Source: Candidatus Pacearchaeota archaeon
Lineage (GTDB): Archaea; Nanobdellota; Nanobdellia; Pacearchaeales; GW2011-AR1
DNA: 64,000 bases
NCBI GenBank assembly: GCA_049511795.1
Contig: JBEKXS010000001.1
Span: forward strand, 58,514-122,513
Reading direction: 5' to 3'
In this document: positions 15,516 through 44,331 of the stretch, piece by piece
Layout: each line of letters opens with the position of its first letter
Numbering within the stretch: position 1 is the stretch's first letter
Notes under the pieces: generated by a model
Told to the model about the DNA's origin: nothing
The model's database searches: none
What the model saw: only the letters and a program-made list of their open reading frames with translations
Position numbers and translations under genes: made by a program

Positions 15516-16430
15516 TTAGTCAGCCATGTCGCCAAGAGGCTTGTCAAACTTTTCATTAATCTCATAAAGCCTTTCTTCTTGCTCTTCATCAAGGTTTTCA
15601 ATTTGCTCTTCAAGCTCTTTTTTTAGCTCTGCATAAGGGTCAGGGTTGTTTTTAAAATAAGTTTCATTCATCCAGATGTCAAAATCATTGAACTGGCTCT
15701 GTTGTTCCAACCAAACCTTGTTTTGATGGTCAAGATGAAGCAAAGGAGAAAATGAAACAATCCTGTCATCTTTTTTTGTCCCGACAAAATCAGTGAATGA
15801 AATCTTTGTCTTGCTGTTGTCTTTGCTGAAGTAATCAACAAGCTTTTCATAAAGCTCTCGGATTTTGTCTGTTATATTGAATTTTCTGTGGGGCATGGAA
15901 ACATCGACTTCCCTGAGCGCGTTCTTGTTCACAATTTCTTTTTTTATTCTTCTGTTTTCTGTTATAATTGCCTTGTTAAGGGAATCCATAAGCTCCTGCA
16001 AAGTAACTCTTTTGAATCTTGGCATAGGGCTTTTTGGAACAAGCTCTGGAATGAATTCATCAAGCTCAATCCTCTCCATTTCATATTTTTTCTCCTCTTT
16101 TCTCCCAAACAAGATGTCGTCAATTGATTTTATGTATTTGTTGAGAAGAATTTCTGATTTAATTCTCAAAAGAAGAGCTGCTGCAAGAAGAACTTTGCTT
16201 GAAACAAAGAAATCAGCCTCTTCAAGGCTCTTTATCTTGTCAAGATATTTGTCTGTGAGGGTAACTATGTTTATGTTCCATGGGTCAAGCTGCTCTGTAT
16301 TGATAAGATCATAAATGATTTCCTGCCAGCCGATTTCCCTGCTGAAAAGCAAGTCGTGAATTTGCTCCTGCTTTACAGAAGGCTGGGCAGTTTTTTCAAC
16401 TTCCCCATCTTTTTGCACTCTTTTTTCCAT
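15516..16430 (-). CDS. scpA: Segregation and condensation protein A (ScpA kleisin)
   Basis: N-terminal pattern ...LDPWNINIVTLTDKYLDKIKSLEEADFFVSSKVLLAAALLLRIKSEILL is typical of ScpA. Confidence 0.6.
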   Translation of the reverse strand: MEKRVQKDGEVEKTAQPSVKQEQIHDLLFSREIGWQEIIYDLINTEQLDPWNINIVTLTDKYLDKIKSLEEADFFVSSKVLLAAALLLRIKSEILLNKYIKSIDDILFGRKEEKKYEMERIELDEFIPELVPKSPMPRFKRVTLQELMDSLNKAIITENRRIKKEIVNKNALREVDVSMPHRKFNITDKIRELYEKLVDYFSKDNSKTKISFTDFVGTKKDDRIVSFSPLLHLDHQNKVWLEQQSQFNDFDIWMNETYFKNNPDPYAELKKELEEQIENLDEEQEERLYEINEKFDKPLGDMAD

Positions 16431-16486
16431 GTAATCAATATAATAAACAGGAACTTATAAATTCTATTAAGCTGAAATATAATTGT

Positions 16487-16614
16487 GTAGTGCCTAACTT
16501 AAATATGTTGTAGTACCTACATATAGCTCTGCACGGAAATAGGCTTAGATTTCGTGCAAAGTCACCTACATATATTCAGTGTAGTGCCTGAAATGTTTAT
16601 TTGTAGTACCTAAA
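16487..16614 (+). repeat. Two ~40-bp direct repeat units, each containing GTAGTGCCTAA and GTAGTACCTA half-sites about 21-23 bp apart. A ~9-bp hairpin (16531..16559) lies between the units.
   Basis: Copies at 16487-16497, 16511-16520, 16582-16590, 16604-16614. Reverse-complement copies at 42462-42472 and 42485-42495. Confidence 0.6.
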
Positions 16615-16824
16615 GAACCCAGATACAGAATTAATTAATTACTACTCTAGGTTAATCAATGGATGTCATTTTTCAAGAGTAACAGAGACGAAACATTTAA
16701 ATATGAGCAGGACGTCAGGTTTTTATCACCTCTTTTTCCCCAGGAGACGCTTCAGACCACACTAATTTAAGAGGCCTGAAGCACTCCCGAGGGTTCATAA
16801 TCGATTTAGAAAAAATTGATATTG

Positions 16825-16868
16825 CGGGCTTATTAAGATTCAGTATTTTTATTGATTGCTTGCCCGCG
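16825..16868 (+). terminator. Element E2, a near-copy of E1 (GCGGGCTTATTAAG...GCTTGCCCGC), followed by GATTTTTTAT. Terminator-like hairpin.
   Basis: Shares GGGCTTATTAAG and TGCTTGCCC blocks with 1856..1895. Followed by a T-run. Sits at the end of a 488-bp ORF-free region. Confidence 0.3.
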
Positions 16869-16918
16869 TGATTTTTTATCACAACAAAATTTTAATACAT
16901 TCAATTTAGAAAATAATA

Positions 16919-17197
16919 ATGACAGAAAGCCATTATTCTGAAGCAGAACGCAGAGATTTTAGCAATATAATAGAAGCAACTGAAAAATGCTATGCTGCAC
17001 AAGTAAAACAAGGTTATTGGTGGTATACTAATTGCACAAAAGATGAGCTCGAAAAAGTTAAACAAAAAGTGGTTGCAGATGGTCTCGAATTTATTGTTGG
17101 GAACACTGCTTTTGAGAATTTAATTAAAGGTAAAACGATGAAAGGAAAATGCGCTGTTTTAGTAAGGAAAAAAAGAAGAGAGAGTAGATATCCGTAA
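16919..17197 (+). CDS. Hypothetical protein
   Basis: 92-aa ORF. Confidence 0.3.
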   Translation: MTESHYSEAERRDFSNIIEATEKCYAAQVKQGYWWYTNCTKDELEKVKQKVVADGLEFIVGNTAFENLIKGKTMKGKCAVLVRKKRRESRYP

Positions 17198-39703: not shown

Positions 39704-40338
39704 GTGAAAGTAAAGCAAAGGCAAAACTGAACGGAGATGTAATAAAACTACCCCTTAGTTTTTCTCAAGGCAGTATTAGGGTAGCAGACAATAAAGGAAA
39801 TCACTTTCAAAAACCAACACAGCAAATTATGGATAAGGAATTGTATATTGAATGGATGATAACTAATGATGAAATTAAATTGTTGTCAAAACTTATCCCC
39901 AAGAAAAATATAGGAGATTTGATAAAAGTGTTACAAAGAATAAATAAGTTTGCAGAAGCAACGAAATATTCTAAAAGAGAATCAGATAGAGGAGAAAAAG
40001 TTATTGCTGAATTTGAGGGCTTTAAGATATATCATTATACAGATGATTTTAATTCTTTTGAGAAAGTTCTTGGTTCTACATTAAAAGTAAGATTAACATT
40101 TAAGTTAGGAGATTATGGTGTTACATCCCATCCTCATATGTATGTTCTTGTCCCATTCAATTTTAAGACATTAAAAATAAAAAATATCTCTGGGAATGTT
40201 AAGATAGGAGAACCTCTTGGAAAAAAGTGTTTTGCAGAACTAAATTTGACAGAAGAAGAACTTAAAGAGATAATATTAACACTTGCTCACGCTTCAAGTA
40301 ATCATAGAAATGATTTGATTAAAGTTCTTGAATCCTGA
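39700..40338 (+). CDS. Hypothetical protein, candidate restriction endonuclease partner of the adjacent methyltransferase
   Basis: Convergent with, and overlapping by 20 nt, the 3' end of the MTase gene. No clear catalytic motif. Confidence 0.25.
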   Translation: MSESKAKAKLNGDVIKLPLSFSQGSIRVADNKGNHFQKPTQQIMDKELYIEWMITNDEIKLLSKLIPKKNIGDLIKVLQRINKFAEATKYSKRESDRGEKVIAEFEGFKIYHYTDDFNSFEKVLGSTLKVRLTFKLGDYGVTSHPHMYVLVPFNFKTLKIKNISGNVKIGEPLGKKCFAELNLTEEELKEIILTLAHASSNHRNDLIKVLES

Positions 40339-41455
40339 AATCCAAAACATCATTTTTCTTTATTGACTTACTGCCTACTCTATGGGTTATGTTTCTAAAA
40401 TGTTCTAAATTCTTATTAAGGGCTTTACAAACAGATTCTTTTATCTTTTTATTGCTATTGAACTCATCTTTAAATTTAAAGACAAAAAACATATCATTCA
40501 AAACATCTTCTTTGACATTAATTAACCCTGATTTTCCCACGCTTACATTACCCACTCTTGTAACTGCAAGAGCATAATCCTTAACATCTTTTTCTTTTGG
40601 TATTTCTTGGTGTTGTAAAATGTTAGCCCCTGAAATATTGTTTTTTGTATAATCTCTTTGATAATGGGCTTTTTCATTAGATAAGAAATCAAATAAAGGT
40701 TTTCCTTCTTGATGGTTTTTTATTTTGTATAAAAATGTTTTTGGGATTAATTCTTCTGTTAGTAATAGATTTTTGTCTAAAACTTCTTTAACATTCTGTC
40801 CATCTTCATAAAGGATTATTATTTTATCTCTGAATTTATCTATATTTGTAAAGATAGCAAAACAGCAAGGTATAGGTTCTTCAACCATATTCTTACTATT
40901 CTGATAAATTATTATTGTGCTAAATCTGTTTATGATTTCTTTCTTAACTTCTTTATTTTTCTTTGCTATGAAAAAGGAGATAGGCAAAACAAAAGCTATA
41001 CTTGAATTTTCATCTTTAAGATGTTTTATAGATTTCAAAATAAAAGCATTTTCTATTTGAACTTTCTCTTTTTTCTTGAAGGATTCTGTTAAATAATCTT
41101 CATTATTCTTATACTTCTTTGGGAAAAAATAGCTGTCTTTGACATTATATTTTGTAAATGGTGGATTTCCTATAATCAAATCAAACTTTTTATCTAAATC
41201 AAACAAAAAGAAATCACAGGGCTTACTTGTCAGATTCTCATCTATTTCACACTCTTGAATATTGTTAAAACCCTGCTCTTGCATTCCCTTTACAAAGTTT
41301 CTTGTCCCTGCTGATGGTTCTAAAACATTTATATCTCTATTGTAATCTTTATATTCTAAAAGAAGTCTAATTACTCTATCAACAACATTTCTTTTAGTGA
41401 AATATTGTCCCCAAACAAATTTCTTATCGCCCATATCTATTTTATGCTTTGACAT
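40319..41455 (-). CDS. N6-adenine DNA methyltransferase (gamma-class, TaqI-like order: motif I then IGNPPF) with C-terminal target-recognition domain
   Basis: Motif I VLEPSAGTRNF. Motif IV IGNPPF. About 180-aa C-terminal variable domain. The annotated start lies 3 nt from the transposase stop, so the real start may be the internal Met at about 41434. Confidence 0.6.
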   Translation of the reverse strand: MSKHKIDMGDKKFVWGQYFTKRNVVDRVIRLLLEYKDYNRDINVLEPSAGTRNFVKGMQEQGFNNIQECEIDENLTSKPCDFFLFDLDKKFDLIIGNPPFTKYNVKDSYFFPKKYKNNEDYLTESFKKKEKVQIENAFILKSIKHLKDENSSIAFVLPISFFIAKKNKEVKKEIINRFSTIIIYQNSKNMVEEPIPCCFAIFTNIDKFRDKIIILYEDGQNVKEVLDKNLLLTEELIPKTFLYKIKNHQEGKPLFDFLSNEKAHYQRDYTKNNISGANILQHQEIPKEKDVKDYALAVTRVGNVSVGKSGLINVKEDVLNDMFFVFKFKDEFNSNKKIKESVCKALNKNLEHFRNITHRVGSKSIKKNDVLDFRIQEL

Positions 41456-42505
41456 TTTTTAACTCTTTTGACTTGCTAAGTATATCAAGTCAAGCCATTT
41501 ATTTTTCCCAAGATTAAGATTAACCCCTGCTTGTTCAATAGGAGTTTTATTTATGCCTTGATGGATTCTTATAAAATTGTAATAAACAACAAACAAAGAC
41601 AAAATAGCTTCTGCACTTTCAGGGCTTTTGAAATTTCTCATAACCTTGATTCTTGCCCTGATAGTACCTTGTATTCTTTCTATTATGTTATTTCTTCTGT
41701 CTTCACTTGCTTTTAATCTTGTATAAACTTCTCTATCTAATTTTCTGTTTCTTGAACCCCAAACTTTTCTATATGCTTTCTTATAAGCAAAAGCTGAATC
41801 TGTGAATAATGATAATGGTTTATTCTGTGCTTTGAAGAAAAGCATTTTAGCACTCTTTGTATCTCTTTTTGTTGAGTAATGAGAAGAAACCAAAACTCTT
41901 GTTTCCTTATCTATCATATCCCAAAAATAATGCTGTTCATTCTTACATTTAACAAAAATCTCATCTGCGTGATAAATTCTTGAAAGATTTAAGTCAAATT
42001 TTCTCTGAAAATCTTTTAACAATATAGCATATCTTCTTATCCAGTTTAGAACAGCTTGATGGCTTACTTGATAATCTGAAAACTGGTTAAAATGCTCTTT
42101 GACTTTTCTTAAACTCAACCCATTCATATAAAGAGAAACGCACTGGGTTATTACTTCTCTTTTGTGCTTTGTTTTGAAGAAACCATCATCAACCACAAAA
42201 CATTCAGAACAGGAATTACATTTCCATCTTTGCTTTTTTGTGGTATGGTTGAATCTGAAACCCCACTTAATAACTTCTTCAGATTTACAATAAGGACAAA
42301 CCTTCGGCTTGATAACCGAAACTAATTTATAGTTCTGTGTCTTCTGATTTTCGTTATTCATTTTGCGATGGGTAACCTGCCCTTCGGGGCAGTCATATTT
42401 ATTTGTATAAATATTAGATTAGTAAATAACTAATCTATTTAAATGTTTCTATGAGAAGTAATTAGGCACTACAATTCACTATTATTAGGCACTACAACAA
42501 GGGGA
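41400..42505 (-). mobile_element. IS6-family insertion sequence. Exact ends not resolved. Region bounded by the MTase start and GGCACTACAA repeats.
   Basis: Transposase ORF. Upstream GC-rich UUCG hairpin (42377..42392). IS26-IR-like GGCACTACAA copies at 42465..42474 and 42488..42497. Confidence 0.35.
41459..42361 (-). CDS. tnp: IS6-family DDE transposase with N-terminal zinc-ribbon
   Basis: CPYC...CNSCSEC zinc finger. YHADEIFVK, DKETRVLVSSHYSTKRDTKSAKMLF, FTDSAFAYKKAYRKV and RNFKSPESAEAILSLFVVYYNFIR blocks parallel the IS26 Tnp26 blocks WHMDETYVK, DSRGRTVDFYLSSRRNSKAAYRFL, NTDKAPAY, GFKSMKTAYATIKGIEVMRAL. Confidence 0.7.
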   Translation of the reverse strand: MNNENQKTQNYKLVSVIKPKVCPYCKSEEVIKWGFRFNHTTKKQRWKCNSCSECFVVDDGFFKTKHKREVITQCVSLYMNGLSLRKVKEHFNQFSDYQVSHQAVLNWIRRYAILLKDFQRKFDLNLSRIYHADEIFVKCKNEQHYFWDMIDKETRVLVSSHYSTKRDTKSAKMLFFKAQNKPLSLFTDSAFAYKKAYRKVWGSRNRKLDREVYTRLKASEDRRNNIIERIQGTIRARIKVMRNFKSPESAEAILSLFVVYYNFIRIHQGINKTPIEQAGVNLNLGKNKWLDLIYLASQKS

Positions 42506-42696
42506 GAAAGTGTCATAAATATCTGTTCGGCAAAAATCTCGTCAGATTCTTTCCTTAATTTTTTATTAAGAAATTTATCAAGTTTTTTCTGATAGTTTGG
42601 AATATCTATGCCGTACTTTTTATCAAATTCATTAGTAAGTTCAATAATTTTTTCCCTCATTTCTACAACCTTCAAGTCATTTTCTTTCCAGTTCAT
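42469..42696 (-). pseudogene. Truncated hypothetical gene (75 aa) whose C-terminus is encoded by the GGCACTACAA repeats. Probable remnant of the partner of the upstream AbrB-like gene.
   Basis: Start overlaps the stop of the AbrB-like ORF (ATGA). The last 12 codons read through both repeat copies. Confidence 0.3.
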
Positions 42697-42851
42697 TTTT
42701 TCTTTTTCTCCTTTTCTGTTTTCCTGATTTTTACTTCAAGAATATCTCCAAGTTCCAAGCCCAATTTTTCTATTGTTTCTATTGGAATCGTAATTACTTT
42801 GGAACTACCCCCATCCCTGATTTTTGCGTCAAATTGGCTTTCAGTTTCCAT
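42696..42851 (-). CDS. AbrB/SpoVT-MazE-like small DNA-binding protein (antitoxin-like), 51 aa
   Basis: Hand-translated: METESQFDAKIRDGGSSKVITIPIETIEKLGLELGDILEVKIRKTEKEKKK. Swapped-hairpin AbrB-type pattern (GSSKVITIP...LGL..GD.L). Confidence 0.4.
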
Positions 42852-42955
42852 AATATATCTTAAACCTTTTTTAACAAGATTAAATATACATTTGACTATA
42901 AAAAACTTGTGTTTTTACAAAAGATTTAAAAGTAGTCATTTACTAACCTTTCTAT

Positions 42956-43216
42956 ATGGCAAAGGCAATACCAAAGTGGGTACAAGAAAGATTGTCAAGA
43001 CTTTGGAAAAAATATGAGGGGAAAGACATAACATATGAAAATATAGAAAAAACTTTGACTATGGATGATAAAAATACAATAAATGCTTTTTTGAATGAAC
43101 TCAAAACAGCAGGATGGATAGAAGTTAAATCAAATGAATCAGACGCAAGAAAGAAAATATATATTTTAAAATCTCCAAGCGTGGTTATGTTGGAAATAAA
43201 AAAGGAAGAAAAATGA
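42956..43216 (+). CDS. Winged-helix DNA-binding protein
   Basis: 86 aa. ...INAFLNELKTAGWIEVK... recognition helix plus wing. Translationally coupled (ATGA) to the downstream gene. Confidence 0.4.
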   Translation: MAKAIPKWVQERLSRLWKKYEGKDITYENIEKTLTMDDKNTINAFLNELKTAGWIEVKSNESDARKKIYILKSPSVVMLEIKKEEK

Positions 43217-44331
43217 TAATACACGATGTTATTACTGAGGCAGTTGATAAAGATTCAAGACTGGTTTTGAAAAGAATAAAAACTTCTGAAGGAGATTTTT
43301 CAAACAGAAAACTTGCTATTACAAACTTTATGTATAATTGTGAAAGGGACAGGATGAAATATGGACAACCATTATTTAATGGAATTTTCCAAACGTGTCA
43401 TATCAGATTTGATAGGATTCTTAATGACTGGGATTATCTTGGGCTTGAAAACTCCAAAAAACACGCACAGAAAAACAATCGTATATTTTTGCCTTACAAA
43501 CAAAGAAATGAAGAACAGCTATCCCAAATGAAATGGGAAAATTCTGTTAGCGATTTCAATACTATGGTTGGAAAGGTTGATAATGTTCCATTTGTCCTGC
43601 CTCTTTATGCAACCCTTAATGATTGGAAAAAATACAGGGCAAACGCTATTTCAATATTAAACCAAAATCAAACATTAATTCCTATAATCTCATCAAAGCA
43701 TAATGTTTCACATTTTCCAACAATAATAAAATATGAAAAAGGAAAAGATAATCTTATAGGGATAAATTCTTATGAATTGAGTGACATAACAGAAAGAACA
43801 AACCTTTCATATTTGAGAGCAATAAACAGCGATACAAAAACAGGTGATAAAACTTCTTTATTTGTAAATTTCAATTATCCAAGAATCCTTACAAGATTAT
43901 CAAATATCGCTGGTTCTTTTGCATTTACTTGCTTTGCAGGAGATATTTTTTCTGAAAGAGCAAGTTTCCCACAAGGAATGAAAAGAGAATCTGTTAATCT
44001 TATGTTTGACAGAAAGCCAGAAGAATATTCTTTTTATGATTCTAAAGAAAAGAAATTCAATAAATCCTTGCCTCAGAAAGAATGGTATGGTGTTGATTTA
44101 ACCAAAAGTTCTATGGCTAACGTTTCAGTTCTTCACGGATTAAGTGGTTATCAAGTAATAAAATGTTTAAGTCACATTAAACAACAAGATGATTTAGATT
44201 TAATTAATGCTTTAATATTGAATCAGCAAGATGTTTTGAAATTTATGAAAAATTATACTGGTTGGAGTGTATTCTTAGACAGAATGGTTATCCCATCTTC
44301 ACAAACGCAACAAACCCTCTTAAAATTCTAA
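43213..44331 (+). CDS. Hypothetical protein (372 aa), no recognisable domain
   Basis: Good coding structure. No motif matched from memory. Confidence 0.35.
   Translation: MIIHDVITEAVDKDSRLVLKRIKTSEGDFSNRKLAITNFMYNCERDRMKYGQPLFNGIFQTCHIRFDRILNDWDYLGLENSKKHAQKNNRIFLPYKQRNEEQLSQMKWENSVSDFNTMVGKVDNVPFVLPLYATLNDWKKYRANAISILNQNQTLIPIISSKHNVSHFPTIIKYEKGKDNLIGINSYELSDITERTNLSYLRAINSDTKTGDKTSLFVNFNYPRILTRLSNIAGSFAFTCFAGDIFSERASFPQGMKRESVNLMFDRKPEEYSFYDSKEKKFNKSLPQKEWYGVDLTKSSMANVSVLHGLSGYQVIKCLSHIKQQDDLDLINALILNQQDVLKFMKNYTGWSVFLDRMVIPSSQTQQTLLKF

Follow-up and report, generated by a model that had tools for sequence, protein, structure and literature searches.

A short repeat occurs at two places, near 16.5 kb and near 42.4 kb, in a 64-kb stretch of DNA from a Candidatus Pacearchaeota archaeon, the whole of which was analysed and is called the window below. 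The first place is a long intergenic region and the second adjoins the gene of an IS6-family transposase, and the question is whether the copies are remains of a mobile element or sites read by a DNA-binding protein. DPANN archaea are uncultivated or barely cultivated, with small genomes and almost no classical regulators, and to our knowledge almost no gene regulation has been described in them.

Copies of the word and the transposase locus

The core GTAGTRCCT (R being the code for a purine) has six matches in the 64 kb for 0.21 expected, and shuffled sequences never held more than two. At up to one mismatch, GTAGTGCCTAA has five matches in the window against 0.51 expected, as many being found in none of 100 shuffles. 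On the plus strand the core starts at 16487, 16510, 16581 and 16603, and on the minus strand it covers 42464-42472 and 42487-42495. All four plus-strand and both minus-strand copies of the original prediction therefore exist, and its first plus-strand start was right, whereas the other three (16511, 16582 and 16604) were off by one. Counting the invariant T ahead of the core in a logo of 80 sites, the full word has 12 nt, TGTAGTRCCTAA (Table 1). Start-to-start spacings are 23, 71 and 22 bp in the plus-strand array at 16.5 kb and 23 bp in the minus-strand pair at 42.4 kb. With three mismatches the word is at chance level in the window (46 matches for 47 expected), therefore no hidden degenerate copies are present and the window holds exactly six sites.

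Table 1. Coordinates of the sites and neighbouring features in the window
Feature	Position	Strand	Evidence or remark
scpA (segregation and condensation protein A)	15516..16430	-	Pfam SMC_ScpA, E=5e-13; homologues named ScpA
TATA-like box TTATAAA, putative scpA promoter of leaderless-type geometry	16455..16461	-	23 nt before ATG
Site A1, TGTAGTGCCTAA	16486..16497	+	0 mismatches
Site A2, TGTAGTACCTAC	16509..16520	+	23 bp after A1
39-bp palindromic segment between pairs A and B	16526..16564	.	Alignment; absent from closest relative L066
Site B1, TGTAGTGCCTGA	16580..16591	+	Pattern search
Site B2, TGTAGTACCTAA	16602..16613	+	22 bp after B1
Conserved box ATTACTACTCTA	16638..16649	+	Kept in orthologous loci
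Conserved box TGTCATTTTTCAAGAGTAACA	16664..16684	+	Distance from last site helically phased across species
BRE/TATA-like CGAAACATTTAAATA, putative promoter of ncRNA gene	16689..16703	+	Kept in all orthologous loci
Unannotated conserved ncRNA, ~73 nt	16725..16797	+	Starts ~22 nt after BRE/TATA-like CGAAACATTTAAATA
IS6-family (DDE_Tnp_IS240) transposase gene	41459..42361	-	Pfam E=1.5e-19; downstream of C1 and C2
BRE/TATA-like GAAACATTTAAATA, putative transposase promoter	42436..42449	-	Kept in homologous module L248
Site C2, TGTAGTGCCTAA	42462..42473	-	23 bp after C1
Site C1, TGTAGTGCCTAA	42485..42496	-	Pattern search

Sites A1 to B2 occupy a 488-bp gap between scpA on the minus strand, whose start is 56 nt from A1, and a 92-aa ORF. 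The 71-bp spacing within this array is due to a 39-bp insertion between pair A and pair B. The inserted segment, missing from the closest relative (ScpA 88% identical), is bordered by an 11-bp direct repeat ACCTACATATA (16515-16525 and 16564-16574) and folds into a hairpin of -6.7 kcal/mol (z -2.4). Neither the rest of the window nor any of the fetched loci has a second copy of this segment, which may have arisen as a very small hairpin insertion or by slippage. Sites C1 and C2 are located between a 75-aa ORF, which follows a MazE/AbrB-like gene, and the transposase gene. From the end of C2 it is 12 nt to the BRE-like element and 18 nt to the TATA-like box of the transposase gene, whose start is 100 bp from the pair. 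Both minus-strand copies overlap the final codons of ORF 42469..42696 (75 aa), as had been proposed; the accompanying idea that this ORF is truncated did not hold, as five homologues have 73 aa against 75 and only the last ~10 residues differ.

The original prediction held that the copies may be solo ends or MITE-like remnants, that is, terminal or subterminal repeats of an IS6-family element. The proximity of the DDE_Tnp_IS240 gene speaks for this, as do the hexamer GGCACT in the reverse complement of the word, which we take to occur also in the IS26 end, and the direct repeat around the 39-bp insertion in the 16.5-kb array. However, this insertion parts the sites and does not carry them. At 42.4 kb the copies lie solely on the 5' side of the transposase gene, both in direct orientation, and the word read as GGCACT faces away from the gene; no inverted partner was found past its 3' end, where the best candidate (75% over 20 nt) is inside a methylase gene. 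Moreover, the 12-nt core alone is conserved, flanks and between-copy spacers being random in the 80 sites, and the three units in the window have nothing in common beyond the cores. It had been proposed to see whether copies flank other IS6 transposases; among about 190 further loci, retrieved through the motif or through its protein, none has an IS6-type transposase, and the exact transposase of the window, encoded on 19 contigs, has an identical context in all 19.

A homologous MazE/73-aa/IS240-transposase module in another genome (L248) aligns across the site with 78% nucleotide identity and is without the pair; at its position only a degenerate AAAATGCCCAA is present, the flanks TTTATGAC and AGAAACATTTAAATA being retained. 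Because this module aligns through the site without the pair, the latter is a local gain within a conserved module and not an element boundary. A search for target-site duplications here likewise met no definable element boundary, homology with L248 being continuous on both sides of the site, and the 8-bp duplication expected of IS6 ends was not found. The best-supported reading of these alignments is that the 42.4-kb pair would be a lineage-specific, recent gain of two sites just upstream of the transposase promoter. An origin of the copies from IS6 ends is thus exceedingly improbable, and the analysis takes away a false mobile-element annotation.

The module itself comprises five genes (window 41459-44331; L248 865-3724) and is known from these two different genomes. 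It consists of a 372-aa and an 84/86-aa gene, divergent from the MazE/AbrB-like gene (50/52 aa), the 73/75-aa gene and the IS240-type DDE transposase gene (300/307 aa), and in the window an Eco57I-type methylase gene (40319-41455) comes next after it. The 42.4-kb genes lie in a low-GC stretch (0.28-0.31 over 40-44.5 kb). As the transposase is known solely in this fixed context, it appears to be domesticated or linked to cargo rather than part of a free IS.

The word at the scpA promoter

A scan of one genome per species with the pattern TGTAGTRCCT-N11-14-TGTAGTRCCT retrieved 112 stretches, and among the titles listed 31 of 80 are MAGs of Nano-, Pace-, Woese-, Micr-, Iain- or Altiarchaeota. Nearly all archaeal pairs have a gap of 12-13 nt and AA after CCT, and the archaeal loci carry a TTTATAA box 5-25 nt ahead of the first copy; bacterial matches to the pair pattern are mostly coding tandem repeats. 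At 22 loci the nearest divergent ORF codes for a ScpA homologue (57-74% identity), and altogether 27 loci found by the motif, as well as the window, have the sites immediately ahead of a gene for a ScpA homologue (57-88% identity). At least two sites with at most one mismatch are present within 400 nt of the scpA start in 32 of the 34 Pace-, Woese- and Nanoarchaeota loci examined, contig-edge loci and the window counted. The association also appears in a sample drawn independently of the motif, for which the contigs of six ScpA homologues from a protein search were fetched: four of the six have two to four exact sites, and the other two have the variant GTAGTGGTTAA or GTAGTTACTAA. Sites at scpA are arranged as pairs or quartets about 22-23 bp apart. 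The 80-site logo reads T-G-T-A-G-T-R-C-C-T-A-A, with 12 near-invariant positions between unconserved flanks and spacers, and with the strict pattern most Pace- and Woesearchaeota genomes match at the scpA locus alone. Taken together, these comparisons indicate that TGTAGTRCCTAA is most likely a conserved, putative protein-binding site at the scpA promoter in many DPANN archaea. Such conservation of a word at scpA across a phylum was not met in the open-access literature searched.

The distances between the sites and their surroundings vary in a regular manner. Across species, the scpA ATG lies 23, 27, 33-35, 43-45, 51-56 or 87 bp from the first site, and the last site lies 31, 39, 50-52, 59-63, 72 or 82 bp from a conserved GTCATT...GTAACA box. 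When periods of 6-16 bp were scanned, 10.5 bp was the best for both distances, with R of 0.77 for the scpA ATG and 0.85 for the box; on unique values this gives p = 0.04 and p = 0.005, respectively, under a max-R null, p-values that are generous because the loci are related. Judged from these spacings, indels at the scpA locus clearly appear to have come in whole helical turns. Phasing at 10.5 bp is characteristic of proteins that act jointly on duplex DNA, and it ties the array to both divergent promoters.

The divergent promoter on the other side of the array precedes an unannotated ncRNA. Its 5' tail AUCACCUCUUUUUCCCCAGG (UAUCACCUCUUUUUCCCCAGG) is nearly invariant, and its hairpin shows compensatory double changes in 7 of 14 pairs (RNAalifold, 23 species). 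The same tail resembles the 3' end of 16S rRNA (anti-Shine-Dalgarno AUCACCUCC). A second hairpin at 16824-16878 on the plus strand, GCGGGCUUAUUAAGA...UCUUGCCCGC, with GUGAU and a U-run after it, occurs in 14 loci and shows compensatory changes in three of five outer pairs, and some relatives have a third hairpin, AAAGTCGTGGAGC...GCTCCCACGC. A search of Rfam over 16380-16960, both at the gathering cut-off and at E<=10, gave no match for any of this region, the second hairpin included. Between array and ncRNA, the conserved box ATTACTACTCTA has TACTAC in common with the reverse complement of the A-variant site.

A candidate reader of the word

At eight loci away from scpA, clusters of the word abut a small ORF whose product starts with MAF(L/I/V)RKKK.xGxxYxYL..S.R..GKV.QK...YLG; no other recurrent neighbour gene was found at the non-scpA loci. 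These clusters come from Micrarchaeota, Methanosarcinales, Nanoarchaeota and even Acidobacteriaceae. The shared domain is N-terminal, has about 36 residues (consensus MxFxRKKKIxGxxYYYLVKSxRVxGKVxQKVxxYLG) and matches no family in Pfam or NCBIfam. A word-indexed search yielded 263 relatives, the majority of them hypothetical proteins with 51 aa from Woese- and Pacearchaeota, and an exhaustive profile search gave 3,284 clusters at E<=1e-3. The domain stands alone (~50 aa) or, in some proteins, has a class II aminoacyl-tRNA synthetase or a DnaJ domain after it. For example, it is fused to the N-terminus of a glycyl-tRNA-synthetase-like (GlyRS) class II enzyme in L001 (1-1108, minus strand) and L111 (5182-6849, plus strand), and it is encoded by a separate gene 24 nt upstream of that synthetase in L250 (2501-4239, plus strand) and L197 (4001-5634, plus strand). 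At these GlyRS-linked loci, from Pace- and Nanoarchaeota, the TATA-to-ATG interval contains the word or a variant of it. Neither a family member (six-frame hmmsearch) nor a GlyRS gene was found in the window.

The position of the word relative to the family's own genes was followed on contigs fetched by exact protein and by back-translated patterns in metagenomes. In 14 of 15 close homologues the ATG is preceded at -18 to -20 by GTAGTGCCTAA, which directly follows TTTAAATA, and two to five extra copies are located further upstream; every copy has the same orientation, the opposite strand having none. The word also occupies the TATA-to-ATG interval at L073, L108, L111, L001, L187, L195 and L250. 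In distant subfamilies (35-50% identity) this place is taken by TTGTGCCTAA (nine loci), GTAGATCCTAA, TGTAGTGGTTAA, ATAGTGCCTAA or GTAGTTACTAA, and two of the subfamily variants recur upstream of scpA in other lineages. Site spacings at the loci found from the protein cluster at 22-24, 42-47, 68-78 and 116-125 bp. The family's loci in relatives hence combine a site in the gene's own promoter with co-variation of word and protein, and the helix-face relation is that of the scpA loci. This own-promoter position and this co-variation support a link, probable on sequence grounds, between the word and one protein family.

At three loci from Woesearchaeota and a Methanosarcinales MAG (L187 4001-8156, L195 4001-6546 and L073 4813-6442), the 51-54-aa gene overlaps that of a membrane-anchored, cysteine-rich protein of 494-539 aa; the next ORFs are without Pfam domains. 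The small protein was considered as OrfA of an OrfA/OrfB-type IS, and this was rejected, the overlapping 533-539-aa ORF coding for the membrane-anchored Cys-rich protein, homologous to the 494-aa ORF of L073, and not for a transposase. In two Acidobacteriaceae MAGs (L029 1772-1819 and L082 6065-6112), four abutting 12-bp copies (TGTAGTGCCTAA x4) lie directly upstream of, and inverted to, the gene of a 65-aa homologue of the domain, and therefore the pairing of protein and word reaches bacteria.

Two virus-like contigs with a large terminase subunit in common, one binned as a Levyibacteriota MAG and the other an IMG/VR contig (L006 370-481 and L119 1532-1567), have two to four copies of TGTAGTGCCTAA in non-coding DNA ahead of the terminase region. 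A search beside both clusters yielded no small-protein gene; the cluster of L006 has a palindrome TTTACTACTAATTAGTAGTAAA next to it. Arrays of four to seven copies of (T/C)GTAGTGCCTAAC are present in Iainarchaeum, Micrarchaeota and related contigs (L071 5220-5658, L041 878-995, L015 5618-5701 and L092 5059-5445). Those of L071 and L041 are in long gene-poor stretches, the former adjoining a TFE-alpha gene and a tRNA-like sequence, and those of L015 and L092 are inside called ORFs, the L015 copies being translated as VVPK repeats at the end of the small-protein ORF.

The fold of the domain was predicted by AlphaFold2 from 97 sequences (pLDDT 87), with strands at residues 2-9, 12-23 and 26-37 and a helix at 38-50. 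Foldseek returned nothing significant, the best TM-score being 0.58 (MoSub1), and the nearest solved folds are the nucleic-acid binders PC4/Sub1 and PUR; a sequence search of solved structures gave no match. Pfam AP2 is matched at E<=1 by two of the 97 members, below threshold (best 20.7 bits for a cut-off of 33.3), the best match having E=5e-4 and placing residues 4-45 on profile positions 6-42, co-linear over the domain. Arm-DNA-bind_4 is matched at E<=1 by three of the 97, and one family member is labelled 'AP2 domain' by JGI. By eye, the motif YLG-x-F-D-x-x-E-x-A-Y of a 63-aa subfamily looks like what we take to be the AP2 pattern WLGTFxTxExAAxAY. Profile comparison with single sequences of Tn916 Int and AtERF1 gave no signal. 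An AP2/integrase-like beta-sheet reader is thus a lead and not a finding. The word itself, asymmetric, 12 nt long and repeated head-to-tail, is in keeping with a small monomeric domain.

The proposed operator and known systems

We consider that TGTAGTRCCTAA is the word of operator arrays for this small beta-sheet family, which would control the two divergent promoters, of scpA and of the ncRNA, and in second place that of the transposase gene, and we give this reading a probability of roughly two in three. It draws on the observed conservation, position and phasing of the word and on its association and co-variation with the family, from which we infer physical binding, the sign of regulation and a family member in this genome. 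The original suggestion of protein-binding sites with two-turn spacing is likewise strengthened, at the level of sequence comparison, by helical phasing, a conserved promoter-proximal position and the link to one protein family.

A sequence-specific DNA-binding protein, for which the family with the ~36-residue domain is the candidate, would read the word, and the four plus-strand copies would form an operator array in the divergent scpA/ncRNA promoter region. Archaeal TATA boxes are centred near -26, which puts the word of the family's own genes between this box and the first base of a leaderless message. A protein bound there would block recruitment of RNA polymerase, resulting in autorepression; further copies are present upstream at multiples of ~23 bp. 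The scpA sites lie upstream of the TATA box, inverted relative to this autoregulatory layout. Monomers bound head-to-tail there, at two-turn intervals, would share one helix face beside the BRE/TATA element, where they may act on TFB/TBP or on polymerase recruitment; they would be on the same face as the conserved box before the ncRNA promoter.

A more speculative extension is that the word may belong to a DPANN-wide regulatory code set by a previously unrecognised mini DNA-binding domain and marking the promoters of scpA and of the adjacent small RNA, in which the Pacearchaeota form joined or adjacent to GlyRS would directly gate chromosome-segregation genes and couple translational capacity to the cell cycle; we regard this as doubtful. 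Nothing relevant to the word or to DPANN regulators was found in the open-access literature searched; the protein family, the word and the GlyRS link were not met there, whereas operators of autoregulated regulators are already known. The 12-nt word, its candidate reader, the scpA/ncRNA target and their geometry make up a directly testable regulatory circuit, and they can guide the annotation of promoters, small genes and ncRNAs across thousands of metagenome-assembled genomes.

The array could alternatively serve DNA transactions, as an iteron-like origin or as a centromere-like or condensin-loading site by scpA, bound by the small protein of the family or by Orc1/Cdc6. Its direct-repeat period, the restriction of the strict pattern to one locus per genome in most Pace- and Woesearchaeota, the gene-free region of ~490 bp conserved beside a chromosome-segregation gene across a phylum, and the 4-7-copy arrays in long intergenic regions of Iainarchaeum and Micrarchaeota contigs are all compatible with such a role. 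However, conserved ncRNA genes that have a promoter of their own take up this gene-free region, and the placing of the word before GlyRS and, at many small genes, between TATA and ATG is the geometry of a promoter element. An origin in particular is disfavoured by copies that are all direct, with no inverted arrangement around an AT-rich unwinding element, by a word presumably unlike the canonical ORB dyad, by gene tables of six loci in which orc1/cdc6 is not among the neighbouring genes, and by a cumulative GC skew without a turning point at 16.5 kb, itself a weak test over 64 kb. We therefore judge a role in DNA transactions unlikely.

Just as unlikely is that a different factor, such as a conserved winged-helix regulator, reads the word and that the small-protein genes are its regulon. 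The absence of a family member from the window would fit this, and the co-variation of word and protein could be phylogenetic; but the word is placed between TATA and ATG in essentially every family member examined, in very distant lineages including bacterial ones, it changes along with the protein subfamily, and its non-palindromic, head-to-tail form suits a small monomeric domain better than a dimeric helix-turn-helix protein. Action in RNA, with the repeats as part of a leader or a small RNA, might be thought of in a region so rich in conserved structured RNAs, all the more as the copies of any one array are all on one strand. Against it, the own-gene word is not transcribed because it is upstream of the expected start site, the distance to the TATA boxes at scpA varies from 5 to 25 nt, 10.5-bp phasing belongs to duplex DNA, and around the copies no covarying structure was found and the spacers are random, which leaves this reading with very little probability.

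Among known systems, the terminal inverted repeats of IS26/IS6 share with the word the hexamer GGCACT on the reverse strand, and an IS6-family gene is near one of the two loci; here, however, there is no inverted pair, the orientation is wrong, no association exists elsewhere and a homologous module is without the copies. As in ParB-parS, which loads bacterial condensin, and in archaeal SegB sites, a short conserved word is clustered by a chromosome-segregation gene, whereas parS is palindromic and read by ParB and the word described here is asymmetric with promoter geometry, no ParB/SegB homologue being seen nearby. Plasmid iterons have a similar direct-repeat period of ~22-23 bp and are bound head-to-tail by an autorepressing initiator; unlike them, the present sites have no rep or replication initiator gene adjacent in any locus and are found in promoters of housekeeping genes, chromosomally conserved across a phylum.

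Autoregulated archaeal transcription factors with operators that overlap their promoters, of the MDR1, Lrs14, Phr and TrmB type, are similar in having a site between TATA and the start of their own gene, extra sites upstream and helical phasing with the promoter. They differ in that the candidate here has a predicted beta-sheet domain of ~36 residues that belongs to no Pfam or NCBIfam family, and not a helix-turn-helix or ribbon-helix-helix, and in that the word is non-palindromic, head-to-tail and conserved over several DPANN phyla. Finally, with the AP2/ERF domain and the arm-type domain of integrases (the N-terminal part of Tn916 and lambda Int) the candidate shares a predicted order of three antiparallel strands and then a helix, and, like integrase arm sites, the word is monomer-sized, asymmetric, about 12 bp long and set in direct repeats.
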